This document shows, in pieces, positions 11,013 to 61,958 of a stretch of DNA of 64,000 nt. Numbering within the stretch: the stretch's first letter is position 1; every line of letters begins with the position of its first letter. The position numbers and the translations under genes were made by a program. Where the stretch lies: contig CBFDCL010000001.1 of NCBI GenBank assembly GCA_965603295.1, positions 506 through 64,505 of the forward strand, read 5' to 3'. Under the pieces are notes generated by a model that saw only the letters and a list, made by a program, of their open reading frames with translations, had not been told where the DNA came from and searched no databases. The DNA is from an uncultured bacterium (GTDB taxonomy: Bacteria > BMS3Abin14).

Positions 11013-12409
11013 TCCCCCTCGATCCGAACCTTATGCAAGAGGTCATCGCCGCTCTTCTTTCCTCGGGAGGGGAGTTCGCGGACCTCTTTTTCCAGGATGT
11101 TACAGCCAGCCATCTGGAGGCCGAATCGGGAAGGGTGGAACGTGTTTCCACGGTGCGTGAGGCGGGAGCCGGACTCCGCCTTATCCGGGAGGGGGTCACG
11201 CATTTCGCCACGGCTGTGGACCTGACCCCGCGTCATTTACTTGACCTGGCTATGGACCTTGCTTCCGGGGCCGGAGCCACGGGAGACCGGCCCGGGATCA
11301 CCTTTCAACAGCAGGCCGGAGGATCCCTTCCTCCCGGGGAGGATCCCTCAGGGATATCCCTGGATGAGAAGAGCCGACTGGTGATGCGGGCCATCGAATC
11401 CCTCGAGAATTTTGACAGGAGACTCGTTCAGGTCAAGTCGGTTTACAGGGACTCCTCGGCCCTGGTCAGGATAGCCAATTCGGACGGTCTCCTGGGAGAG
11501 GATGTCAGAAGATATGGGGTCTTCCTGGTCCAGGGGGTGGCTTCGGACGGTGAACGCCTCCAGGTCGGTTATGAACCCGTGGGGGGTATCGGAGGTTATG
11601 GGGTATTCAGGCAGGTGAACCCAGAGGAGGTCGGGCTTACTGCCGCAAAACGTGCCCTGACGATGCTCGAGGCACCGGAGGCGCCTTCCGGAAAAATGAC
11701 CGTAATCCTTTCGTCCGAGGCCGGCGGAACGATGGTCCACGAAGCGGTGGGGCACGGTCTGGAGGCTGATCTTTCAGGTCAGGGGCTTTCGGTCTATACA
11801 GGAAAACTGGGGGAAAAAGTTGCCTCCTCCCTTATTACGGTTGTGGATGATCCAACCCTGGCCGGGAAACGGGGCTCATACAATATGGATGATGAGGGAA
11901 CCCCGGGATCGAAAACCGTCCTGGTGGAAAAAGGGGTCCTCGTGCGCTACATGAACGATCGGCTGAGTGCACTGCGTGACGGCAGTCCCCTGACGGGAAA
12001 CGGCCGCCGCCAGTCTTTCCGTTACTGGCCGATACCGAGGATGTCTAACACGATCATCGAACCGGGTGATCAGGATCCTGGAGAGATCCTGCGCAGTGTT
12101 GACCACGGGCTTTTCGTTCGGAAAATGGGGGGAGGTCAGGTGAACCCCGTGACAGGTGATTTTGTTTTCGAGGTCAGTGAGGGCAATTTGATCCGCGGGG
12201 GTGAGGTCGCAGAGGCGGTTCGCGGTGCTACCCTTGCCGGTAACGGCCCGGAAGTGCTAAAAAGTGTAGATATGCTTGGAAACGATCTTGGTTTCGGTAT
12301 CGGCACCTGTGGTAAGGAAGGACAGGGGGTGCCCGTAGGGGACGCGCAACCCACCCTGAGGATCCCGGACATGGTGGTGGGAGGCCGGGACGCTGGAGAG
12401 AACACCTGA
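11009..12409 (+). CDS. tldD: TldD/PmbA-family metalloprotease (TldD-like, HExxxH present)
   Basis: 466 aa with the TldD/PmbA fold and the HEAVGH motif. Confidence 0.7.
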   Translation: MIPLDPNLMQEVIAALLSSGGEFADLFFQDVTASHLEAESGRVERVSTVREAGAGLRLIREGVTHFATAVDLTPRHLLDLAMDLASGAGATGDRPGITFQQQAGGSLPPGEDPSGISLDEKSRLVMRAIESLENFDRRLVQVKSVYRDSSALVRIANSDGLLGEDVRRYGVFLVQGVASDGERLQVGYEPVGGIGGYGVFRQVNPEEVGLTAAKRALTMLEAPEAPSGKMTVILSSEAGGTMVHEAVGHGLEADLSGQGLSVYTGKLGEKVASSLITVVDDPTLAGKRGSYNMDDEGTPGSKTVLVEKGVLVRYMNDRLSALRDGSPLTGNGRRQSFRYWPIPRMSNTIIEPGDQDPGEILRSVDHGLFVRKMGGGQVNPVTGDFVFEVSEGNLIRGGEVAEAVRGATLAGNGPEVLKSVDMLGNDLGFGIGTCGKEGQGVPVGDAQPTLRIPDMVVGGRDAGENT

Positions 12410-14136
12410 TGAGGATCCCCGGATTCGGGAAAAAACACCATGATACCAAGGCATCGGGGCATCCCGGTGAGGGTTCGATTGGGGGGGTGCGGATCCTTTA
12501 CCAGTTCCTCCTGGTGACCCTGGCGGTTTCGGTTATCCCTCTCCTAATGGCCGCGTATAAGCTTGTCGGGATCAACCAGGTTTTCCTTGAGGACGAACTT
12601 CTCGCCCTTCACACCCAGGTTGCAAATTCCACTGCCGAGGAGATATCCACCGCCATGTCCACGATCCTCGGCAACCTGGAAATGGTTGCCAAGGCCCAGG
12701 GCGGGAACAGCCCCCTTCGAAACGAGGAAAGGGAACGGACTCTCGTCTTTTACCTTGACCAGTATCCCGAGATCATCCGCCTGACCCAGTATTCCACTGC
12801 GGGAAGGGAGATCGCACGGGTGCTGCGCATTGGGCTGTCCAAAGTCCCCCTTCTCGATGAATCGATCCTAACGGCCGCTGTTTCCGAGGCCTCGGGTGGA
12901 AGAACCTATGTGAGCCTTCCTACCGTCCTGGGAGAGCAAAGGGCGCCGGTGGTGGCGATAGCCATGCCCGTCTACGGGGTCTCGGGAGGCATCCAGAGCG
13001 TTCTGGTGGGAGAAGTCAGCCTCGAGAAGGTGCAGCAGACCGTTGAGCGCATCAACATCCGGAGGCAGGGCAACGCCTACGTGGTGGATCGGAACGGCAC
13101 CCTGATCGCCCATCAGGATCTCGAGAGGGTGATGAGATCCGAAGATATGAGTTCGGTGGAGATTGTGGGAAAGTATCTCCTGGCGGGCCTCAGCGCCGGG
13201 ACGATCCCTTTCAAGGATAAAATGGGCAAGGATATGGTGGGTTCCTACTCCAACGTTAAGGCCCTTGGGTGGGGGGTGGTGGTCCAGGAGCCCCGTGATG
13301 ACGCGTACAGGATCATCCGGGATATGACCTTTCAGACGCTGATCTGGGCCATTGTGGCGATATTGGCTGCCGGCGTCGCCAGCATCCTGCTGGCGATTCG
13401 GCTGGCCCGCCCCATCGGCATCCTTGCCGGCAAGGCGATGTCCCTGGCCAGGGGGAACTTTCAGGAAAGGGTGGACATCCGGTCACGGAACGAACTCGGG
13501 CAACTTGCCCGGACCTTCAATCACATGGCAGCGCAGCTCGAGAGGCATGACCAGAACCTTCGGGAGATGTTCATCGATACGACCAAAGCCCTGGCCGCCG
13601 CCATCGATGCCAAGGATCCGTATACCCGGGGGCACTCCCAGCGTGTGGCCCAGATCAGCCTGGAGATCGCCAAGGAGATGGGCCTTTCCCCGTCCGAGCA
13701 GCAGAAGGTTAACATCGCCGCGCTCCTCCACGATGTGGGCAAGATCGGTATCGAGGACCGTATCCTGAACAAACCCTCCCAGTTGACCGACGAAGAGTAC
13801 AATGTCATCAAGCAGCATCCCCGTTGGGGATCCATGATCATGGGGCATATCAGCCAGCTCAAGGAGATCGTGCCAGGGATTCAGTACCATCACGAGCGCC
13901 TTGACGGAACGGGTTACCCTGAGGGAAGGGCGGGCAACCAGATCCCCATGCTGGCGCGGATCATCGCCGTGGCTGACACGTTCGACGCCATGACAACGGA
14001 CCGCCTTTACCAGAAAGCCATGGACCCCCGGTTCGTAGTGAGCAAGCTCGTCGAATGGAAGGAAAACCGTTATGATCCATTGGTTGTGGATGCCATGACA
14101 CGGATTTACACCAGGATCGTAAACAAGGTCGCCTGA
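12409..14136 (+). CDS. membrane sensor with periplasmic Cache-like domain, HAMP and HD-GYP phosphodiesterase domain
   Basis: TM helix, HAMP, then HD-GYP (HDVGKIGI, HHERLDGTGYPEG); the true start may be an internal GTG near 12487. Confidence 0.7.
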   Translation: MRIPGFGKKHHDTKASGHPGEGSIGGVRILYQFLLVTLAVSVIPLLMAAYKLVGINQVFLEDELLALHTQVANSTAEEISTAMSTILGNLEMVAKAQGGNSPLRNEERERTLVFYLDQYPEIIRLTQYSTAGREIARVLRIGLSKVPLLDESILTAAVSEASGGRTYVSLPTVLGEQRAPVVAIAMPVYGVSGGIQSVLVGEVSLEKVQQTVERINIRRQGNAYVVDRNGTLIAHQDLERVMRSEDMSSVEIVGKYLLAGLSAGTIPFKDKMGKDMVGSYSNVKALGWGVVVQEPRDDAYRIIRDMTFQTLIWAIVAILAAGVASILLAIRLARPIGILAGKAMSLARGNFQERVDIRSRNELGQLARTFNHMAAQLERHDQNLREMFIDTTKALAAAIDAKDPYTRGHSQRVAQISLEIAKEMGLSPSEQQKVNIAALLHDVGKIGIEDRILNKPSQLTDEEYNVIKQHPRWGSMIMGHISQLKEIVPGIQYHHERLDGTGYPEGRAGNQIPMLARIIAVADTFDAMTTDRLYQKAMDPRFVVSKLVEWKENRYDPLVVDAMTRIYTRIVNKVA

Positions 14137-21100: not shown

Positions 21101-23299
21101 CTACATCCTCCTGTTCTTCATGTATCCGCTTTTCATGGTTTTTTCCACGTACAGGCAGGCTTGACGGGAAAGGGCGATGAGCTTTTCAGGCCTGGGTTTT
21201 TCACCCTGACCGGATACCGCGGCTCCCAGAGCCAGATCATACCGTCCCCCGTGCTGTTCCCGGAAGTGCTCGATGAGGCGGTCGGCGTAGCCGTCCACCA
21301 GGGATGCATAGGTCAGGATGACAAACTCTCCCTGGGGCCGGCTCTGGATAAGATTGTCCTCCATTCTTCCATCATCCATGATGTGGAGGATGGTCTCCTC
21401 CATATCCCCCAGCGATTCGAATGAGTATGTGTCCTCAGAGGATGTCATGCCCGAGGCCGGGTTCACGTGCACGGTGAGGACTCCCACCGTTTTGCCCTCG
21501 GACAGGCGATTGGCCAACTCACCGGTGAACTCCTCGTCTCCGGGATGCCAGGCTGTGATTCCCCTCTGGGGACTGATGAGACCCTGGGTGGGCAGCGAGA
21601 ACCGGAAAGAGGTTTTCTCCCCGGGAGTGCTTGTGGCGGAAATGGTGCCTCCGTGCTGTTCCACCAACTCCTTCGTCAGGGAAAGGCCAAGCCCGGTTCC
21701 CTTGGATTCCGAATGTTCCTCGGCCGGTTCGTTGAGGATGCCCCTGTAGAAACGGTTGAAAACAAGGGATAGCTCCTCCTCTGAGATGCCTGGCCCGGTG
21801 TCGCTGACCTCGAAAACCGTATGCCCGTCCGAGGTGTGAAGGGCGATGTCGATGTGGACACCCGTTCCGCCGTACTTGATAGCGTTCCCGATGAGGTTAA
21901 CCAGGGCCTGTTCCACCCTGTCCCTGTCAGCGATGAGATTTGGGAGATCTTTTTCGGCGTGGAGCCTCACCACGGCTTTGCTGGCTTCGGCCTGAGGGTT
22001 GAGGAGCTTGACGGCGTTCTCCGCGATCTCGAGGGGGTTGAACGGTTCCTTGGTCAAGGCTAACTGTCCCGACTCGAGGCGGGCGAGGTCGAGGAAGTCG
22101 TTGATAAGCCGGTTGAGCCTCTTGCTCTCGTTGTGGATGATGAAGAGGTAGCGTTCGAGGGGTTCGGGTATGTCGTCTCTCCTGATCAGAAACTCCGAAA
22201 ACCCCTGAATCGAAGTGAGGGGCGTGCGAAGCTCATGGGATACGGTGGAAATGAGCTCCGTCTTGAGGTGATCGAGCTTGCGGATCTGAAGCCGGTCGAA
22301 AATCCCCTCCAGGAGTAGCCCGGAAAACTGCGTCAGGATGGCCTGGGAAACCTTCATCAGTTCCATGAACTCGGGGGAACCCTCCGGAACCGCCGAAAGG
22401 GCAATGCCGAAAAGGTTGTGCCGCGGGGGCAAAAGGCTCCTGAGGAGGCGAAGTCCGGAGCTGTTGAGGAGATCCCAGGCGAACCCCAGTTCCCGGAGGC
22501 GTTCGTTGTCCGGGTAAGGGGGGTGAAGTGATGCGGCAGCCAGGAACTGGTACACGGAGAAGCCGGAGGCGAAATCCATGACCGACATGTTGGTCCCCGT
22601 TTCCGGGTTAATGGTTCCTGCCCATGCCCGGTTGCTGCTCATCTCGCCTACGAGGATCATATGAGAGGATGATCCCAGAACGCTGTTCATCCCTCTGACC
22701 GTAGCCGGGATCAGGCCGGTCTCGATGTCCATGGATTTTCCATGGATTTCCTGGAGGGTGGAAAAGAGGGAGTTCGAGGAGATGCTTATGCGGTCGACCT
22801 CCTCCCACAGGTACAGGTTTTCCATCCCCATCCCAACCTGGAGGGCGAGGGATTTAAGGGTCCGGAGGTTTTCCTCGGTGAACCCCTCGTTCATCGTAGT
22901 ATCGGTGACGTTCATGACCCCGATCAGGCGCCCGCGGCTTTTCAGGGGAACGCTGATAAACGACCTGGTCCGGTATCGGTCCTGAAACTGAGCTGAAAAC
23001 CGGATATCCTGGTCCATATCGGGGACCAGGACGGCGTCACCGGTAGCGGCTACCCAGCCCGATACACCTTCTCCCACGGGGACTTTCACCCCTCCCATGT
23101 TTTCCGGGTAGCGACCGGCCCAGGCGGTCAGGGAAAGGTTCTGTCCCTGGGGGTCCAGGGAGAGGATGGAAACCCGCTCCGCGTCGAACAGCGCGAGGAC
23201 CCTGTTGCAGAAGGTGCGGAGGATCGTGACCTCATCAAGGTTGGAGTTAAGCAGTTCCTCCAGCTCCAGGAAAAGATCCTCCGTGATCTGTCGCGTCAT
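21101..23299 (-). CDS. sensor histidine kinase (GAF/PAS - HisKA - HATPase) with uncharacterised ~170-aa C-terminal domain
   Basis: GAF domain at the N-terminus, H-box (VSHELRTPLTSIQGF), N/G1/G2 boxes (NAIKYG, DTGPGI, GLGLSL), then an extra C-terminal region with no recognisable motif. Confidence 0.8.
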   Translation of the reverse strand: MTRQITEDLFLELEELLNSNLDEVTILRTFCNRVLALFDAERVSILSLDPQGQNLSLTAWAGRYPENMGGVKVPVGEGVSGWVAATGDAVLVPDMDQDIRFSAQFQDRYRTRSFISVPLKSRGRLIGVMNVTDTTMNEGFTEENLRTLKSLALQVGMGMENLYLWEEVDRISISSNSLFSTLQEIHGKSMDIETGLIPATVRGMNSVLGSSSHMILVGEMSSNRAWAGTINPETGTNMSVMDFASGFSVYQFLAAASLHPPYPDNERLRELGFAWDLLNSSGLRLLRSLLPPRHNLFGIALSAVPEGSPEFMELMKVSQAILTQFSGLLLEGIFDRLQIRKLDHLKTELISTVSHELRTPLTSIQGFSEFLIRRDDIPEPLERYLFIIHNESKRLNRLINDFLDLARLESGQLALTKEPFNPLEIAENAVKLLNPQAEASKAVVRLHAEKDLPNLIADRDRVEQALVNLIGNAIKYGGTGVHIDIALHTSDGHTVFEVSDTGPGISEEELSLVFNRFYRGILNEPAEEHSESKGTGLGLSLTKELVEQHGGTISATSTPGEKTSFRFSLPTQGLISPQRGITAWHPGDEEFTGELANRLSEGKTVGVLTVHVNPASGMTSSEDTYSFESLGDMEETILHIMDDGRMEDNLIQSRPQGEFVILTYASLVDGYADRLIEHFREQHGGRYDLALGAAVSGQGEKPRPEKLIALSRQACLYVEKTMKSGYMKNRRM

Positions 23300-24283: not shown

Positions 24284-24334
24284 TCATCGATCACTTCGAG
24301 TCCAAAGTCCAACGCCCAAAGCCCAAAGGGATAG

Positions 24335-24515
24335 AACAATTGAGGATTGAGGATTGAGAATTGAGAATTGAGAAAAAACAGTGATTAGTGATTCGTGATT
24401 GGTGATTGGAAAACGGTTTGAGGTTTGAAGTCTGAGGTTTGAAGTTTTACGTCAGAAGCCAGGATCCATAGGCCAGGAAGAAATTCACATTAAACATTAA
24501 ACAGTAAACGTTAAA
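24335..24515. repeat. composite heptamer element E-H-F followed by an (AAACGTT)n-like tract; direct repeat of 23401-23523 on the other side of hpt
   Basis: E 24335-24371, H 24378-24408, F 24413-24447, N' 24484-24515; preceded by (CCAAAG)n at 24299-24329. Confidence 0.75.
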
Positions 24516-24540
24516 CCTATATGCACCAGGGACTTTCTTT

Positions 24541-25509: not shown

Positions 25510-25572
25510 CCTCAACTCTCAACCCTCAACTCTCAACCCTCAACTCTCAACCCTCAACTCTCAACCCTTAAC
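25510..25572. repeat. (CTCAACY)7 tandem heptamer array downstream of hcp
   Basis: cctcaactctcaaccctcaactctcaaccctcaactctcaacccttaac. Confidence 0.7.
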
Positions 25573-25581
25573 TTGGAACTA

Positions 25582-27225
25582 TTATTTCCCCAGTGCCTCA
25601 GCCAGGTCCTTGTCCACCTCCCCGATGGGGGCGATGCCGAAGTTGTCCACGAGCACCTGGAGAACGCCGGGCGTGATAAAAGCGGGCAGGGTCGGGCCCA
25701 GTTTGATGTTCCGGATCCCCAGGTGCAGCAGCGTCAGCAGGATGCAAACGGCCTTCTGCTCGTACCAGGACAGGATCATGGACAAGGGAAGGCTGTGAAG
25801 GTCCGTCTCGAAAGCGTCAGCCAGGGCCGATGCGATGCGGATGGCCGAGTAAGCGTCGTTGCATTGTCCAATATCCAGAAGTCGTGGGATGCCGCCGATG
25901 TCACCGAATTCCATCTTGTTAAACCGGTACTTTCCGCACGCCAGGGTAAGGATTACCGTGTCTTCGGGTGCCTTCTCGGCGAACTCGCTGTAGTAGTTGC
26001 GCCCGGGCTTGGCCCCGTCGCATCCTCCTATGAGGAAGAAGTGCCGGATGGCGCCCGATTTTACGGCGTCCACCACCGCCCCTGCAACGCCTAGAACCGC
26101 GTTGTGGCCGAACCCCACAGTGATGTTTTTTGCTTCCATGTCCTCAGCAAAGCCTTCCGATTCAAGGGCAGCCTCGATGACCGGGGAAAAATCGTCATTG
26201 CCAACGTGCCTGACCCCTGGCCAGGCCACGAGGCCCGTGGTAAAGATGCGGGCTTCGTAGCTTTTGCGGGGTTTCTGGATGCAGTTGGTGGTCATGAGGA
26301 TGGCTCCAGGGAACGCATCGAACTCCTTGTGCTGGTCCTGCCAGGCTCCGCCATAATTACCTACCAGGTGACTGTATTTCTTGAGTTCCGGGTAGCCGTG
26401 GCAGGGGAGCATCTCCCCGTGGGTATAGACGTTGATCCCCTTTCCCTTCGTCTGTTTCAGAAGGATTTCCAGATCTTTCAGGTCATGGCCGGAAACGAGG
26501 ATCGCCTTGCCCTTGACCGGCGTGATACGTACCTGGGTTGGTTCCGGGTGTCCGTAAACCCCGGTATTGGCCTCGTCGAGCAGCTCCATGACCCTCAGGT
26601 TGACTTCGCCCACTCTCATGGCCATGGCCACCAGGTCATCCGCCGAATGGTCCGTCGTGAGGTAATCGAGGGCTTCATGGAAAAAGGCGTTTATCCTCTG
26701 GTCAGTTTTCCCGAGAATGAGGGCGTGGTCGGCATAGGCTGCCATACCCTTGAGGCCGTATAAAATGAGTTTTTCGAGACCTGCTGCATCGTCCCCGACA
26801 GCCCGCTGCCGTATGGTGATCCCCACCGCACCGGCCTGGGCGAGGAGTCCGGCTCGGTCCTGGCCGGGGGAGAAGGCGGCTGCTTCGGAAATCTCCTCGG
26901 GTTTTTTCCCTGCCTGTCCGCAGGCGTCCTCGTAAAGTATTCTGGCGCGGTCACGGATTTGGATGCCCTGCCGGATCATGGCCTCGATCCGGTCAGGGTC
27001 GAAGTTCACGTTGGTGACGGTGGTAAACAGCGCTTCGATGACGAAGCGATCGATCGATTGATCCGCGGCCCCCAGTTGCCGTGCCCGATGGGCGTACTGG
27101 CTGATCCCCTGGACTGTGTGGATCAGGAGGTCCTGGAAGTCTGAAGTTTCGTCATCCTTGCCGCACACCCCGAACCTGTCGCATCCGGTCCCATGGGCGG
27201 TCTGCTCGCACTGGTAACAGAACAT
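25582..27225 (-). CDS. hcp: hybrid cluster protein (hydroxylamine reductase)
   Basis: Start [15 protein letters not shown] (N-terminal Cys cluster) with GGAGATAACC RBS; 547 aa; hybrid-cluster ligand regions. The ORF-track N-terminal extension was rejected. Confidence 0.9.
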
Positions 27226-27285
27226 GATGGTTATCTCCTTTTCTAAGATCAAAATAGTATCAGCATATCTTTTGCTGTCATGGAA

Positions 27286-27327
27286 AGTATATCGCGCCTT
27301 GTGCGGAGAAACCTTGACGGGGGTCAA
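27286..27327 (-). promoter_or_regulatory. hcp promoter: CRP/FNR-type palindrome TTGAC-N4-GTCAA centred 29.5 bp upstream of a TATACT -10
   Basis: Palindrome ttgacgggggtcaa at 27314-27327 (top strand), centre 27320.5. The TATACT -10 hexamer is agtata on the top strand at 27286-27291 (minus-strand sense), giving class-II spacing with the site at about -41.5. An AGGAGA RBS sits before the hcp ATG. Confidence 0.5.
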
Positions 27328-27628
27328 TAAACGGTGTTTGACGACCTGGCGAGGGGGCGACTGGGCGACGGGGAGGGAAGAGAGGGATCTAACCTCCAAT
27401 GCTTGCCAAGCCGTAGCTTTAGCGAAAGCTGGTCCAACGCCTGCCCACCGTAGCCTTGCGCGAAGGTGGGTCCAACGGGAGAGGCAGTTCAGAGTGCAAA
27501 GTTCAGAGTGCAGAGGGAACATTGTTGAGAATTGAGAATTGAGGGTTGGAAATCCAAGAATGCCGTTTGCTGTTTGTAGTTTGAAGTCGCGAATTTGAAA
27601 TTGTATGTCTGGAACCAGGAACTAGGTA

Positions 27629-28300
27629 CTAGGCACCAGATACTGCCTTGATGTTCTCCGGCCCGTTGTTTCCCGGCGCGTTGACCTTCTTCGACACGTC
27701 CCAGGCGTCCATCTGCCCGGCGGGGTAAAGGACGAGGAGGGGAGACAATATCTCCGGGTCCTGAACGGCGTTGTCAAGCCACAGGTCGCGCTTGTCCCTG
27801 CGGATGATGGCAGGCATGCGGTCGTGGATGGGAGCGAGAAGTTCATTGGGCTGGGTGGTCACGATGCTGCAGGTGCGGATACTTTCCCCTTCCGGCGAAG
27901 TCCAGTCGGAGTAGAGCCCCGCGAACCCGAAGGGCCGTCCGTCCTTCATGGTGATGAAGACCGGTACCTTCCCCCCTTCGGTCTTGCGCCACTCGTAGAA
28001 CCCGTCGGCGGCGATGAGGCACCGGTGTTTTTTAAAGGGTCCTTTAAAGCTCGGTTTTTCCGCCAGAGTCTCGGCTCGGGCGTTGATCATGCGGCTGCCG
28101 ATGGACAGGTCTTTCGACCATGGGGGGATGAGGCCCCAACGGGCCAGCATGAGTTGGTTCCCGTCCTCGTTCACCACCACCGGAACGTCCTGCGTGGGGG
28201 CTATGTTCCAGGAGGGGCGGAGGGGGATCTCCGGACTCTGGAGGTTGAATTCCTGTTTTAGGAGGGGGAAAAGTTTAAATTGTACGTATCTGCCACACAT
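27629..28300 (-). CDS. SOS-response-associated peptidase (SRAP/YedK family)
   Basis: Starts MCGRY (catalytic Cys2) with conserved SRAP blocks. Confidence 0.8.
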   Translation of the reverse strand: MCGRYVQFKLFPLLKQEFNLQSPEIPLRPSWNIAPTQDVPVVVNEDGNQLMLARWGLIPPWSKDLSIGSRMINARAETLAEKPSFKGPFKKHRCLIAADGFYEWRKTEGGKVPVFITMKDGRPFGFAGLYSDWTSPEGESIRTCSIVTTQPNELLAPIHDRMPAIIRRDKRDLWLDNAVQDPEILSPLLVLYPAGQMDAWDVSKKVNAPGNNGPENIKAVSGA

Positions 28301-48335: not shown

Positions 48336-50678
48336 ATGTTTTTTCGAACGCGGTACCGGAACCTGTCCCTGGAGGTTTTAAAGGCCTTTCAGGTCTCCGC
48401 GGAACCCAGGGTCCAGCTGTTAAGGACCGCCCGCACCCTTGCGGCGACTCTCGGGGCGGATCTGTGCCAGATTCTCGTCAGGGGTTCTGCGTCCGACGGT
48501 TTTCAGCTAAGGGCATGGGCCGGGCCGGGAGTTCAGGGACCGGTTGAACCCGATTTGCCCCTTGAACAACACCTCCATCGTCTTGCTGTTTCCGGGGTGG
48601 TCCATCGCTGGTCCTCTGGAAAGGGCGGACCCCCTCCATTTCCCAGGGTTCAGGCGGAGGATCTCACGAGCGCCGTTGCGGTGCCCATCCTGTGGCGGCA
48701 CCGGCCGGTGGCCATTGTCGTTGCCGGTTTCGCTGATCGGAGCCGTGTCCCTCCCCGGATGGTTCGGGAGATCCAGGATCTTTCCGCATCCCTTGCTCCC
48801 CTTATCAGGGGCAGCCTTTCCAGACTTTACCAGATGCGCAAAAACGAGGCGGCGGGAGAACTCCTGAGGGTTTCAGAAGACCTCAGCCTTGCGGGGAACG
48901 TTCCCAGTTGTTTCGCCCGGATTGCCAGAGCCGCGGCTACTCTGACGGGATCGTCCGGATCCATGCTTCGGATGGAGGAAAGCTCGATCCTGAAAGTCAA
49001 GGCGTTTTTTGCCAGCGGGATGCCGGGGATAAAGGCTATCGGGGTCCCGAACGACTTTCCTTTCGCTGAGCGGGCCCTTAGAAGCGGTCGTTCCGTTGTT
49101 ATCGATCACCTTCACCGGGAAACCGGGGAAAATGGCGCTCCTGTCAGGCGAAACCTGTTGTGCGTTCCGTTCACCGACGGCAGCAGCCGAGGGGTTTTGA
49201 CCCTTTTCGATCGGGATGACGGCCATGGGGCCTCACCCTATTCCCGCCTCGAAAGGGAAACGGCAAGAGCGCTTCTCCGCGTGGGAATAATGTCCCTTCG
49301 TCACATCGGCAACGAGACCGAAGTGCTCAAGATATCCCGATCCCTCGAATGGCGGGTCAGGGAGCTGACCCTTCTGCACCAGATCAGCCGTGTGGCCCTC
49401 GATCACAGTGACCCAGAGGAGGTCCTGCGGTCCATCCTTGAAGCGGTTACCAACGTCGTGGGGTTCGGTTTCCATCGCGCTTTTCTATTCATGCATAATA
49501 TCGGGAAAAGTGTCCTCAAGGGCGCCATGGGTGTGGAAGCTCTTCCGGTTTCCGGGATCAACGCCCAGACCTCGAGCCCGGCGGATTCCTTTGGCATCAT
49601 TCACCAGAACATCGATGAGGTGGTTTCCGGTCTTGAAATCGCCGTAAAGCCGGGGGGCGGGGTTCTGTCGAGGGCGGTCCTCGAGCGCAAGTCTTTCAGG
49701 ATGAGGATACCGGGGGACCACAATCTGCTGGGTTCCGATGTGATAACGCAGCTGGGCAACGTCCAGGGTTTCGCGGTGGCCCCCCTTCTTTCCGACGAGG
49801 CTGTGCTCGGTGTGATCTGGGTGGATAATTACAGGACTATGCGCCCCATCCGGTTGGACGATTTCCGTCTGCTCGTGACCGCGGCGGCTCAGGCAGCGCT
49901 GGCCATGGAAAGGTCGTCCCGTGCCCAGGCCGTGGATCTTTTGAGCAGTAAACTCCTCGATCTTCAGAACCAGCTTATCCAGTGGGAAAAGATGGCTGCC
50001 CTGGGAGAGATGGCCGCCTCCGTTGCTCACGACATCAGGAACCCCCTGGTTTCCATCGGGGGGTTTGCCCGCAGGCTGAAGAGGCAGCTTTCCGGGGATC
50101 ACAAAGGGAGCAGATACGCCGAAGTTATCATCCAGGAAGTGGATCGGCTCGAGCGGACACTGGAAAACGTCATGTCCTACACGCGCACTTACGGGATGAC
50201 AGAAAGAAAGCCCTCCAGGCTTTACGCCCTGCTGTCGGAGTGCGCTGAACTCTTCAGTGAGAATTTCAGGAAGAAACAGGTTGTGCTAAAGCGGCAGTTC
50301 GAGAGGGATATCCCGGAGATCCTGCTTGATGAACGCCAGATCAAGCAGGCGGTGATCAATATCCTGTTTAATGCCGGGGAGGCCGTACCGGAGGGGAGCG
50401 AAGTGAGGCTGTCAGCACGCGTGGGGAAGACCGAGCAGGGTGATTTTATTGTCATTGATATCTCCGACGAAGGTCAGGGCATCACCGACGGAGATCTCAA
50501 AAAGGTTTTTCAGCCGTTTTTCACCACGAAGGCCAGCGGTACCGGTCTGGGGCTCGCCATTGCCCAACGAGCCGTATCCGGGCACGGCGGCGAAATTCGG
50601 GTGGACAATCGATGTGGTGAAGGGGTAACTTTCAGCATATATCTGCCTTTAGCCCCTTGGACTCCAGCGGAAGAGTAA
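48336..50678 (+). CDS. sensor histidine kinase with tandem GAF domains
   Basis: H-box (VAHDIRNPLVSIGGF); N, G1, G2 boxes. Confidence 0.8.
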   Translation: MFFRTRYRNLSLEVLKAFQVSAEPRVQLLRTARTLAATLGADLCQILVRGSASDGFQLRAWAGPGVQGPVEPDLPLEQHLHRLAVSGVVHRWSSGKGGPPPFPRVQAEDLTSAVAVPILWRHRPVAIVVAGFADRSRVPPRMVREIQDLSASLAPLIRGSLSRLYQMRKNEAAGELLRVSEDLSLAGNVPSCFARIARAAATLTGSSGSMLRMEESSILKVKAFFASGMPGIKAIGVPNDFPFAERALRSGRSVVIDHLHRETGENGAPVRRNLLCVPFTDGSSRGVLTLFDRDDGHGASPYSRLERETARALLRVGIMSLRHIGNETEVLKISRSLEWRVRELTLLHQISRVALDHSDPEEVLRSILEAVTNVVGFGFHRAFLFMHNIGKSVLKGAMGVEALPVSGINAQTSSPADSFGIIHQNIDEVVSGLEIAVKPGGGVLSRAVLERKSFRMRIPGDHNLLGSDVITQLGNVQGFAVAPLLSDEAVLGVIWVDNYRTMRPIRLDDFRLLVTAAAQAALAMERSSRAQAVDLLSSKLLDLQNQLIQWEKMAALGEMAASVAHDIRNPLVSIGGFARRLKRQLSGDHKGSRYAEVIIQEVDRLERTLENVMSYTRTYGMTERKPSRLYALLSECAELFSENFRKKQVVLKRQFERDIPEILLDERQIKQAVINILFNAGEAVPEGSEVRLSARVGKTEQGDFIVIDISDEGQGITDGDLKKVFQPFFTTKASGTGLGLAIAQRAVSGHGGEIRVDNRCGEGVTFSIYLPLAPWTPAEE

Positions 50679-51062: not shown

Positions 51063-52086
51063 CAGGTTCCCGGATTCCCTTCCGGGGTGTTCCCGTTTCC
51101 CCCGAATATTCTGCCTTCTGATCACGGTTATCTTTCTGGTTTCCGGGTGTTCCGGTTCGCGAAAGCCCGTTCGTGAGACCCGCTTCCTGATGGGGACCCT
51201 CGTCGATGTGATCGCCTACGGGGACCAGGAAACGGCCGCCGAGGCGGTGGGCCGGGCCTTCGAAAGGATGGCGGAGGTGGAAGAGGCATCTCATAGTAAG
51301 GGCTTGGGTTCCCTTCTTGGGGCCATCAGGGACGGAAAGGGTGCCCTTCTTACCGGTGATGCCGCTCTCGTCATGGAAACGGCCCTGTCCGTCGCTGTGG
51401 CCAGTTCGGGGGCTTTTGATCCCACTCTGGGGGAACTGGTGGAACTGTGGGGGATCGCCACCGGTCATCCGGAAGTGCCCGATGACGAGAAGATCAAAGA
51501 GGCCCTTTCCCGTTCCGGGTACCAAAGGATCCCGGAGACAGGGTGCTGTCCCGATGGGATGAAGGTGTGGCTGGACCTGGGCGGTGTGGCCAAAGGGTAC
51601 GCGGTGGATGAAGCGGTCAAAGTGCTGAAGGAGGCGGGGGTCCCCTCGGGGATCGTTAACGCGGGCGGGGATCTGAGGTCCTTCGGTCAAAAGCCGGGGA
51701 AAATTCCCTGGAAGATCGGGATCCAGAATCCCGATGACCCTCAGGATCTGGCGGGGGTCCTGGATGTTAACGAGGTCTCCGTCGCGACCTCGGGGGATTA
51801 TCAGCGATACTTTGAGGTGAGCGGTGTCCGGTATCACCATATCCTCGATTCGACCACCGGACATCCCGCACGGTCAGGGGTCCGCAGTGTGACAGTCCTC
51901 ACGGATGACTGCGCTCTTGCCGATGCCCTGGCCACAGCCGCTTTCGTGATGGGTCCCGAAAGGGGCCTGGGTCTGCTGGAGGCCTGGGAAGATGTGGAGG
52001 GGATCATCATTTCCCAGGACGGTACCTATCACCTGACGTTGGGCATAGGAACGAAGATCCCGTTTGAGAAGCGAATTGAGGATTGA
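51052..52086 (+). CDS. apbE: FAD:protein FMN transferase ApbE (lipoprotein)
   Basis: Lipobox (LVSGCSG); ApbE motifs (DLGGVAKGYAVD, GGD); the stop codon lies inside a GAGGATTGAG repeat. Confidence 0.8.
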   Translation: MMIDRFPDSLPGCSRFPRIFCLLITVIFLVSGCSGSRKPVRETRFLMGTLVDVIAYGDQETAAEAVGRAFERMAEVEEASHSKGLGSLLGAIRDGKGALLTGDAALVMETALSVAVASSGAFDPTLGELVELWGIATGHPEVPDDEKIKEALSRSGYQRIPETGCCPDGMKVWLDLGGVAKGYAVDEAVKVLKEAGVPSGIVNAGGDLRSFGQKPGKIPWKIGIQNPDDPQDLAGVLDVNEVSVATSGDYQRYFEVSGVRYHHILDSTTGHPARSGVRSVTVLTDDCALADALATAAFVMGPERGLGLLEAWEDVEGIIISQDGTYHLTLGIGTKIPFEKRIED

Positions 52087-52324
52087 GAATTGAGAGTTGA
52101 GGATTGAGAAAAAAGTTTGAAAGTTTGAGAGTTTGAGGTTTGAAGTTGTGAATTCAGGAGACAGGAGCCAGAATCCAGAAGGCAGCATTTCTTTGGCCTT
52201 TGGGCATTGGGCTTTGGGCTGTTCTTCCAATCACCAATCACTGGTCACAAATCACCGAAATTTTCTTGGATCTTGGATCTGTTTTGAAATTTGGAATTTG
52301 AAATTGCCTTTTGAGATTTGAGAT

Positions 52325-52717
52325 ATGAGGTCTGAAATAGGAACTCGATCCATTCGCCTGACCCGTCCCCGATGGGCGGACGGGGTCCTGCTGGTCCTCC
52401 TGATCGCCCTGACGTTCCTTCCCCCACGGTTGATCCCGGCCGGTCCCAAAGGCGACACCCTCGTGGTCAGGACGTCGGGGTCCGTTTTTGAGGTGGATCT
52501 TACCGATGAAGGGCCCCATCCCATCGATGGCCCGCTGGGAGAGGCTGTCCTCATGGTCCGGGACGGGAAGGCCTGGCTTCAGAACGCTCCCTGTCCGCTC
52601 AAGATCTGCGAGGGGATGGGCCCCATTGACGAGTCCGGCGAGATCATCCTGTGCCTGCCGAACCGGATTCATATTCAGGTAGCAGGGAGCGGTGGTGTTG
52701 ATGCGATCTCCCGGTAG
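52325..52717 (+). CDS. NusG domain II-containing membrane protein
   Basis: N-terminal TM helix plus small beta domain; family call from memory only. Confidence 0.45.
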   Translation: MRSEIGTRSIRLTRPRWADGVLLVLLIALTFLPPRLIPAGPKGDTLVVRTSGSVFEVDLTDEGPHPIDGPLGEAVLMVRDGKAWLQNAPCPLKICEGMGPIDESGEIILCLPNRIHIQVAGSGGVDAISR

Positions 52718-58026: not shown

Positions 58027-59442
58027 TTGAATCTTGAACCCGATCGAAAGGGGCTCGGATTGAGCCAGGACGCGAAAAAGATCGAGAAATACAGGGGCAT
58101 CATCAAGTTCCTTGAGCACGCTGTCAGAAACATCGCTATTTACCCCTCTGAACACCCATCGGTTAAGGGGGTGTCAAAGCGCGCTTTTGATCTCCTCGGC
58201 CAGATTTTGGAGGAAGCTCCCGAGGTCCGGGTCCGGGTTGTCAACGGGACCCTTTTTCTGGACGAATATTCCTTCTCCGAGCCGACACCCTATTCCCGGA
58301 ACTTTATGAAGGTCCTTGATAGCTTCGGGATCGACGACCTGTTTTTCCGGAAAGGTGTTTCCGAGGATGAGTTCCTCATGCTTTCCGAGGTTCTGAATGC
58401 CAGGGAACGAAGCAGGGAAATGTTCCAGGAGATGTGCGAAAGGGAAGGGATACGGAATATCGGTCTGGGGAGGGAAGGACCCCGGCAGGATCATGGGGAC
58501 GGGGCCGAAGGGGATGTCCAGACCCTCGAGGATGCGGTGGGGAGAGTTGAGCAGTTTTTCAATGAAGTGGGCGGAGGCGGGTTCCCCTCCCTGCATGATG
58601 TGGAAAGTCTCGTTGAAGGCTTGATGAAAATTTCGGGAACCCGTGAGGCCTTTTCCCCTCATCTTTTTGGTGAAAAAGGGTACGACTCTTATACATTTGG
58701 CCACTGTGTCAACGTGGGAATCCTTTCCCTTCTCCTCGCTCGCCAGAAAGGGCTTAGCGAACAGGATGTCAGGAAGGCCGCCCTCGCCGGGTTAATGCAC
58801 GACATCGGAAAGGCGAGGGTGCCCCCTGGGATCGTTCAAAAGCCGGGCTTTCTGACCCCCCGGGAAAATGAGGAGATGAAATCCCACGCTGACTATTCGG
58901 GAGAAGTTGTGCGGCGGATGGGCGGTGCCGAGGATGTGGCAGGGGCTGTGGAGAACCATCACAGGTTTCACGACGGGGGCGGCTACCCGGCTCGGGAAGA
59001 TGGGGAAAATGTCCCGGCCCTTGCCGGTCTGGTATCGGTTGCGGATTTTTTCGACGCTGCCACGGCGGCTCGTCCCTATCGGGTGGCCTTGAACCCCGTC
59101 GAGGTTATGGATTATCTGAGGAAAGAACGAGGCCGCAGGTTCGACCCTGTTCACGTGGATGCCCTTTTCGCCCTGCTTGGACCGTTTCCTCCGGGATCCG
59201 TCATCCGGCTCTCGAGCAACGAGATTGGCGTTGTTGTCACGGGCGGGGAGCATTCGGGAGCCCTTTCCGTGAGGATGATCATCGACCGGGATGGTGATCC
59301 TTTCGGCAGTAGGCGCATCCTGGACCTGAATGGACCTGATGCGGCGGGGAGGGTTGTGGCTGGAGTTGTCGATCCGGCCCTTTACGGTCTGGAAATATCG
59401 GTTGCCCTTTCCTTCGGTTCTTACGCGAACCTGTCGCGATAA
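58027..59442 (+). CDS. cytoplasmic HD-GYP domain phosphodiesterase
   Basis: HDIGK and HHRFHDGGGYP motifs; the real start is probably an internal TTG/GTG. Confidence 0.7.
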   Translation: MNLEPDRKGLGLSQDAKKIEKYRGIIKFLEHAVRNIAIYPSEHPSVKGVSKRAFDLLGQILEEAPEVRVRVVNGTLFLDEYSFSEPTPYSRNFMKVLDSFGIDDLFFRKGVSEDEFLMLSEVLNARERSREMFQEMCEREGIRNIGLGREGPRQDHGDGAEGDVQTLEDAVGRVEQFFNEVGGGGFPSLHDVESLVEGLMKISGTREAFSPHLFGEKGYDSYTFGHCVNVGILSLLLARQKGLSEQDVRKAALAGLMHDIGKARVPPGIVQKPGFLTPRENEEMKSHADYSGEVVRRMGGAEDVAGAVENHHRFHDGGGYPAREDGENVPALAGLVSVADFFDAATAARPYRVALNPVEVMDYLRKERGRRFDPVHVDALFALLGPFPPGSVIRLSSNEIGVVVTGGEHSGALSVRMIIDRDGDPFGSRRILDLNGPDAAGRVVAGVVDPALYGLEISVALSFGSYANLSR

Positions 59443-61757: not shown

Positions 61758-61958
61758 TCTCCGGAGTGCAGGATATAGAGTGCAGTGTGCAGAGGGTAAG
61801 AACAATTGAGAATTGAGGATTGAGAATCACGGTTTGAAGTTTGAGGTTTTGAGTTTGAAGTTGCCGATTTGCTTTGTCTCTGCACTTTACACCCTGCACT
61901 CTGCACTCAATTCTCTGGACTCTGAACCCTGAACTCTGAACTCTGAACCGGCCTTTTT

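Follow-up and report, generated by a model that had tools for sequence, protein, structure and literature searches.

The locus described here raises the question of how hcp, the gene for a hybrid cluster protein, is switched on in an uncultured bacterium in which a perfect palindrome lies upstream of the gene and no regulator gene lies beside it. Throughout this text, the window refers to the entire 64-kb stretch of DNA that was analysed. The gene itself occupies positions 25582-27225 of the minus strand and encodes a protein of 547 aa. Its assignment as hcp (hybrid cluster protein / hydroxylamine reductase) was already part of the original prediction, and full-length Prismane / hydroxylamine reductase matches are in agreement with this: the protein matches the Pfam Prismane family PF03063 at 1e-174, the NCBIfam hydroxylamine reductase equivalog NF003658 with 826 bits (cut-off 367), and TIGR01703 with 767 bits. 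The N-terminal Cys motif is present within the N-terminus MFCYQCEQ, and independent gene calls for three same-species contigs likewise give 547 aa. A ribosome-binding site, AAGGAGA (27234-27240, minus strand), is found 8 nt 5' of the ATG. The hcp reading frame remains open for another 99 codons 5' of the true start, up to 27522, and passes through both the promoter and repeat arrays. The resulting 646-aa ORF (25582-27522, minus strand) was rejected as a chance frame, since the conserved N-terminus, the ribosome-binding site, and the independent gene calls all point to a start at 27225. An open frame of this kind could mislead automatic gene callers.

Because the next gene downstream encodes a convergently oriented EamA transporter, hcp is monocistronic, and an hcr gene is absent downstream of it. 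The upstream neighbor is a 228-aa ORF, which has the right size for a CRP/FNR regulator, but was rejected as such because Pfam identifies it as an SRAP (YedK-like) protein. The intergenic region between the SRAP gene and hcp contains 2.2 copies of a 38-nt unit (27395-27477, 78% matches), one of which includes an 11-nt inverted repeat with 82% complementarity (27444-27454 / 27460-27470). Farther out, the window also encodes two GAF-domain histidine kinases and two HD-GYP-type (HD_5) proteins (21101-23299, minus strand; 48336-50678, 12409-14136, and 58027-59442, plus strand), with the first of the kinases located three genes away from hcp. Among the scanned ORFs, no response-regulator gene was detected adjoining any of these kinases or HD-GYP proteins.

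Intergenic DNA throughout the window is rich in short tandem arrays with a period of 7 (some 8 or 14) and 3-10 copies each, examples being found at 24302-24516, 25511-25573, 27486-27543, 27611-27639, 52073-52329, and 61804-61948. The heptamer differs from array to array, as can be seen at 24302-24516, where CCAAAGC, AATTGAG, GTGATTG, GGTTTGA, and ACATTAA arrays follow each other back to back. In total, 55 period-7 arrays were counted in the 64 kb, 42 of which are mostly intergenic even though only ~15% of the window is intergenic, and their density is far above that of most of the 160 other loci. Similar heptamer repeats have been reported from Beggiatoaceae and from some cyanobacteria and Bacteroidetes (PMC4679880). 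The core of the hcp promoter lies outside these arrays. Heptamer arrays also make up the hcp upstream region of one of the other loci (L005:1-230), a MAG contig labelled 'uncultured bacterium SRR22302358_concoct_46' with 70% Hcp identity. This organism may be a relative of the one studied here, although its contig ends before any position at which a box could be found.

The feature of primary interest is the predicted CRP/FNR-family (FNR/DNR/HcpR-type) box TTGACGGGGGTCAA at 27314-27327, to which no strand is assigned and which is identified as the sole perfect match, by its weight-matrix score, and by its agreement with the published HcpR consensus. The plus strand reads ttgacgggggtcaa at these positions and agtata at 27286-27291. 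On the hcp sense strand, the box reads TTGACCCCCGTCAA and is followed by GG; the complete minus-strand order is ...GTTTA TTGACCCCCGTCAA GGTTTCTCCGCACAAGGCGCGA TATACT TTCCATGACAGC...AAGGAGATAACCATC ATG. The box is centered between 27320 and 27321, and a distance of 29.5 nt separates this point from 27291, where the hexamer begins. Direct reading of the sequence thus confirmed both elements of the original prediction, i.e., a 14-bp palindrome at 27314-27327 and a TATACT at 27286-27291 separated from the palindrome center by 29.5 bp. The hcp ATG lies 95 nt downstream of the box center, and the corresponding distance is mostly 79-127 nt at other loci.

A perfect TTGAC-N4-GTCAA occurs once in the 64 kb of the window vs. 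an expectation of 0.08, and was seen in 8 of 100 shuffled sequences. For all 9.8 kb of intergenic DNA, the counts of the 5-mers TTGAC and GTCAA yield an expectation of 0.016 perfect palindromes, while only ~7e-4 perfect matches are expected within the 403-bp hcp upstream region. When one mismatch is allowed, the two matches found are at chance level (1.79 expected in the window), and a one-mismatch match at 1564 falls within ffh. As the one-mismatch pattern is unremarkable, the statistical case depends upon the match being perfect, upon where it is located, and upon the comparison with other loci. When the window was scanned with a weight matrix derived from 41 boxes found in other organisms, the box scored 15.7 bits vs. 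10.5 bits for the runners-up, which are located inside ffh and holB. The box is therefore the sole strong match and the sole high-scoring intergenic match of the window, and the same scan of the 64 kb yielded no second credible regulon site.

The sequence of the box corresponds to a motif that has been described previously. Rodionov et al. (2005, PLoS Comput Biol, PMC1274295) predicted wyTTGACnnnnGTCAArw as the HcpR motif upstream of hcp and frdX, and the taxa given for it are Geobacter, Desulfuromonas, Desulfotalea, and two cyanobacteria. In what that paper says of HcpR, the motif is a comparative-genomics prediction rather than a biochemically mapped site. The core at 27314-27327 is identical to this motif in 10 of 10 bases, while the flanks fit the published wy/rw at two of the four positions (taTTGAC...GTCAAgg on the sense strand).

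The box is accompanied by a predicted promoter. The predicted -10 hexamer TATACT (27286-27291, minus strand), which matches TATAAT at 5/6 positions, starts 22 nt downstream of the box. The -35 position (27308-27313, minus strand) is occupied by GGTTTC, or by AGGTTT if the spacer is 17 nt, and matches TTGACA at only 0-1/6 positions; a GG conserved among loci, flanking the box on its promoter-proximal side, is part of it. A good -10 together with a -35 this poor is a class II signature, and a class II promoter that depends on an activator is expected to lack a usable -35. When the hexamer is placed at -12 to -7 (27291 = -12), the transcription start would be 27279, within a predicted start region of 27278-27281 (minus strand), and the box center would be located at -41.5. 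The 5' UTR would then be ~54 nt. Among 23 promoters activated by FNR in E. coli, 19 have their site at -41.5 +/- 4 (PMC3688515). The class II spacing of about -41.5 claimed in the original prediction, likewise reckoned from a presumed start, received further support from other hcp promoters, in which the same box-to--10 geometry recurs.

For this comparison, hcp loci were gathered from species-representative genomes (80, GTDB) and from metagenomes (80, JGI), which yielded 159 usable loci including one from the window's own species. The best Hcp identity to the window was 71% among the GTDB representatives and 76% among the JGI metagenomes, and none of the collected hcp loci was found to be syntenic with the window. 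Three ENA contigs belong to the same species; they share 99.8-99.9% identity with the window and do not differ from it at all in the intergenic region, so they provide no evidence of within-species conservation. A perfect TTGAY-N4-RTCAA is present ≤300 bp upstream of hcp in 40 of the 159 loci (42 boxes in 46.7 kb), while the remaining locus sequence contains 22 in 1.05 Mb, which corresponds to a 42-fold enrichment upstream of hcp. A -10-like hexamer of the form nAnnnT starts 22 nt after the box in 28/42 cases and 21 nt after it in another 9/42, and the more stringent TAnnnT is found at 22 nt for 22/42. At other offsets, the counts are mostly 0-3, with a single outlier of 8 at offset 17. The spacer between the box and the -10 is conserved in length, but not in sequence. 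The closest Hcp relative (76% identity) is a typical example, having TTGACTGAAGTCAA, 22 nt, and then TATTTT. Judged from the aligned promoters, this conserved geometry is the classical footprint of a putative class II activator site, and such a comparative footprint would back the promoter assignment more strongly than the sequence of the window alone could.

The logo of the 42 boxes has a T at -2 and a Y at -1, and on the promoter-proximal side a G at +14 in 27/42 and at +15 in 32/42, without a mirror-image CC on the distal side. The flanks of the window fit this logo with T at -2 and GG at +14/+15, the conserved GG being located at 27312-27313 (approximately positions -34 and -33). This GG flank could serve as a contact for sigma region 4 or as an asymmetric contact of the regulator. 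None of the other published hcp operators (TGTGA-N6-TCACA, GTAAC-N4-GTTAC, TTAAC-N4-GTTAA, and GTCGC..GCGAC) had a match upstream of the 159 hcp genes.

The same loci also provide candidates for the type of regulator that reads the box. A divergent CRP/FNR gene is found directly upstream of hcp in 11 of the 40 box-bearing loci (Fisher p = 3e-4), and in 5 of these 11, Pfam confirmed both cNMP_binding and HTH_Crp_2; no NCBIfam model was passed by the hcp-linked CRP/FNR regulators. The recognition helix of all 11 reads [P/S]ET[L/F]SR, such that Pro or Ser replaces the Arg180 of CRP, and none of the 11 has FNR cysteine 20, 23, 29, or 122, one of them being without any cysteine. For HcpR1, the specificity features described are Pro/Ser at CRP R180, Glu at 181, and no FNR Cys cluster (PMC1274295). 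The linked regulators match the HcpR1 signature that Rodionov et al. paired with the motif. Three further hcp-linked CRP/FNR genes (L124, L129, and L142) encode a VRELISR helix instead, and their loci have a different box of the GTGAC-TTAA-GTCGC type, (A/T)GTGACTTAAGT(C/A)GCT, located ~80-120 nt upstream of hcp. These loci fit the role of an internal control and agree with the Arg180/G3 specificity rule of Rodionov et al.

A second and separate class of hcp loci is linked to another regulator family. In 57 of the 159 loci, a gene of the Rrf2 family (NsrR-like) is located immediately upstream of hcp (e.g., L024:3493-3963 and L050:3525-3953; L008-L069 include such loci, as do many others). Only a single locus, L046, combines Rrf2 linkage with an FNR-type box (57 vs. 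40 of 159; Fisher p = 3e-8). The FNR-type box and Rrf2 linkage are almost mutually exclusive, and the window belongs to the FNR-box class of hcp loci. The original prediction had proposed control by a CRP/FNR-family regulator of the HcpR/NsrR/DNR type. The HcpR portion of this proposal is consistent with the HcpR motif published for hcp, whereas NsrR was misplaced within it, as NsrR belongs to the Rrf2 family.

Within the window itself, no gene of either family was detected. A CRP/FNR family profile that combined E. coli CRP and FNR with nine CRP/FNR ORFs linked to hcp had no match among all ORFs of ≥60 aa in the 64 kb, and neither phmmer with E. coli CRP and FNR nor Pfam, which was run with ~52 ORFs, revealed a CRP/FNR protein in the window. 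Similarly, a profile from six hcp-linked Rrf2 proteins found no Rrf2 gene among the window's ORFs of ≥60 aa. With neither a CRP/FNR nor an Rrf2 gene in the window, the factor would act in trans. The earlier expectation of a trans-acting factor with no adjacent gene thus held, and such an arrangement is the rule rather than the exception: the regulator is unlinked in 29 of the 40 box-bearing loci, many of which include 2-4 kb of flank on both sides.

In all, the palindrome very probably serves as the docking site for an activator of the CRP/FNR type whose gene is located elsewhere in the genome. We also consider it likely that the box functions as the operator of a dimeric CRP/FNR-family activator, encoded outside of the window, that controls hcp by class II activation. 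In this model, from which we infer the transcription start, activation, the cognate regulator, and the sensed signal, the activator dimer would bind the box at about -41.5, overlapping the missing -35 element, and would recruit sigma-70 RNA polymerase to the TATACT -10, thereby switching on the monocistronic hcp. The likeliest factor would be an HcpR1/DNR-like protein having a [P/S]ETxSR helix and lacking the FNR-type Fe-S cysteine cluster. The signal would presumably be NO or nitrite-derived stress, so that Hcp would be produced on demand.

Boxes of the TTGAY-N4-RTCAA type are common to FNR, ANR, DNR, FixK, NnrR, and HcpR1, so it takes more than the sequence to name the sensor. Accordingly, the box might be read by an oxygen-sensing FNR with a [4Fe-4S] cluster, in which case hcp would simply be induced anaerobically, as is E. 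coli hcp-hcr, a member of the direct FNR regulon. The only difference between TTGAC-N4-GTCAA and the FNR consensus TTGAT-N4-ATCAA is at position 5 of each half-site, and the hcp-upstream boxes include both C and T at this position (left half-site: 25 C, 17 T). The 29 of 40 box-bearing loci without a linked regulator would likewise fit a global factor. We nevertheless regard this as doubtful, because the regulators that are linked to such a box (11 loci) all lack the four FNR cysteines, and because C/G at position 5 in both half-sites of the window is the HcpR1 consensus rather than that of FNR. An HcpR1/DNR-like activator is therefore the reading we prefer.

The promoter assignment has a competitor as well. 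A consensus scan of the region found two promoter-like sites vs. 0.3 expected, and the top-ranked one is not the predicted class II promoter. It is instead a sigma-70-like sequence at 27254-27281 (minus strand) consisting of ATGACA (27281-27276), a 16-nt spacer, and TG-a-TACTAT (-10 at 27259-27254), located between the predicted class II start and the ribosome-binding site. If transcription were to begin from this ATGACA-16-TGaTACTAT, at ~27247-27249, the box center would be at approximately -72 +/- 2 and would act as a class I site via the alpha C-terminal domain, or else the box would serve both promoters. No sigma-70-like sequence in the region matches better (9/12 positions plus an extended -10 TG), and the FNR site of E. 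coli hcp-hcr is found at a comparable -72.5. However, a 4/6 match at -35 plus an extended -10 would render this promoter fairly independent of an activator, which is a poor fit with a perfect activator box, and the sole signal conserved among the 42 boxes over the 38 nt that follow the box end is the -10-like hexamer at offset 22. We therefore think it quite improbable that hcp is transcribed from this promoter in the manner described, and retain class II activation at TATACT as the preferred arrangement. The same stretch of DNA includes a 5-bp hairpin followed by AUACUAUUUU (27277-27261), which was flagged as terminator-like and rejected, as it is at chance level.

The remaining explanation, namely that the palindrome has no role in hcp expression and is a product of chance or else an RNA hairpin/terminator of the upstream SRAP gene, was rejected in both forms, for although its arms are just 5 nt and one-mismatch patterns occur at chance rate in the window, a perfect match is expected in the hcp upstream region at merely ~7e-4 and the box recurs in the same geometry in 40/159 hcp loci, while the RNA folds no more stably than shuffled sequence (z = 0.29 for the palindrome region and 0.11 for the 5' UTR), a U-tract after the palindrome is absent, the SRAP stop codon is 300 nt away, and Rfam detected nothing at gathering thresholds in the whole window.

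The box-22 nt--10-GG cassette is distributed quite broadly. Closely related hcp genes are preceded by it in MAGs labelled Desulfobacterales, Geobacteraceae, Planctomycetota, and Verrucomicrobiota, as well as in those labelled Kiritimatiellia, Lentisphaerae, and Acidobacteria, and the regulator is unlinked in most of the cassette loci. Given such a rigid cassette in diverse MAGs with a mostly unlinked regulator, one could tentatively imagine that hcp is transferred horizontally along with a plug-in promoter, whose FNR box could be used by whichever FNR/DNR/HcpR-type factor is resident. In the present organism, this factor might even be a general anaerobic regulator instead of a dedicated NO sensor, but we view this whole scenario as rather unlikely. 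The motif, the target gene, and the regulator class were all predicted in 2005, and class II geometry is textbook knowledge; the window contains a new instance of these. What the comparison contributes is an extension of the 2005 prediction beyond delta-proteobacteria and cyanobacteria into PVC-group and Acidobacteria MAGs. Further modest extensions are the fixed class II geometry, the GG flank, and the near-exclusivity with Rrf2 linkage, none of which amounts to a new principle. For the organism itself, the analysis yields a confident and testable account of hcp activation in an uncultured anaerobe, as well as a seed site from which its nitrosative-stress or anaerobic regulon can be defined once the complete genome bin is available.

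Among the known systems that come closest, the control of hcp by Rrf2 (NsrR-like) regulators shares the target gene and the presumed purpose (nitrosative stress), but employs another regulator family and another operator. E. coli hcp-hcr, with FNR at -72.5 plus control by nitrate/nitrite and NsrR, has the same gene under an FNR-type box, and its spacing (~-72) would match that of the window if the downstream promoter were used. However, the comparative geometry of hcp promoters favors -41.5 here, and the window has neither an hcr downstream nor an Rrf2 gene. The class II FNR promoters of E. coli (narG, dmsA, nirB, and nrfA; -41.5) share the spacing of the box from the presumed start, the lack of a usable -35, and a good -10, yet their half-sites are TTGAT/ATCAA rather than the TTGAC/GTCAA of the window, whose start is itself a predicted one. 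A further such system is that of the HcpR1 operators of non-Desulfovibrio delta-proteobacteria and cyanobacteria. In many of the described cases, hcpR adjoins hcp, whereas the window has no linked hcpR and fits the flanks at 2/4 positions, but the 10-base core, the hcp target, and the palindrome with its 4-nt spacer are all alike.
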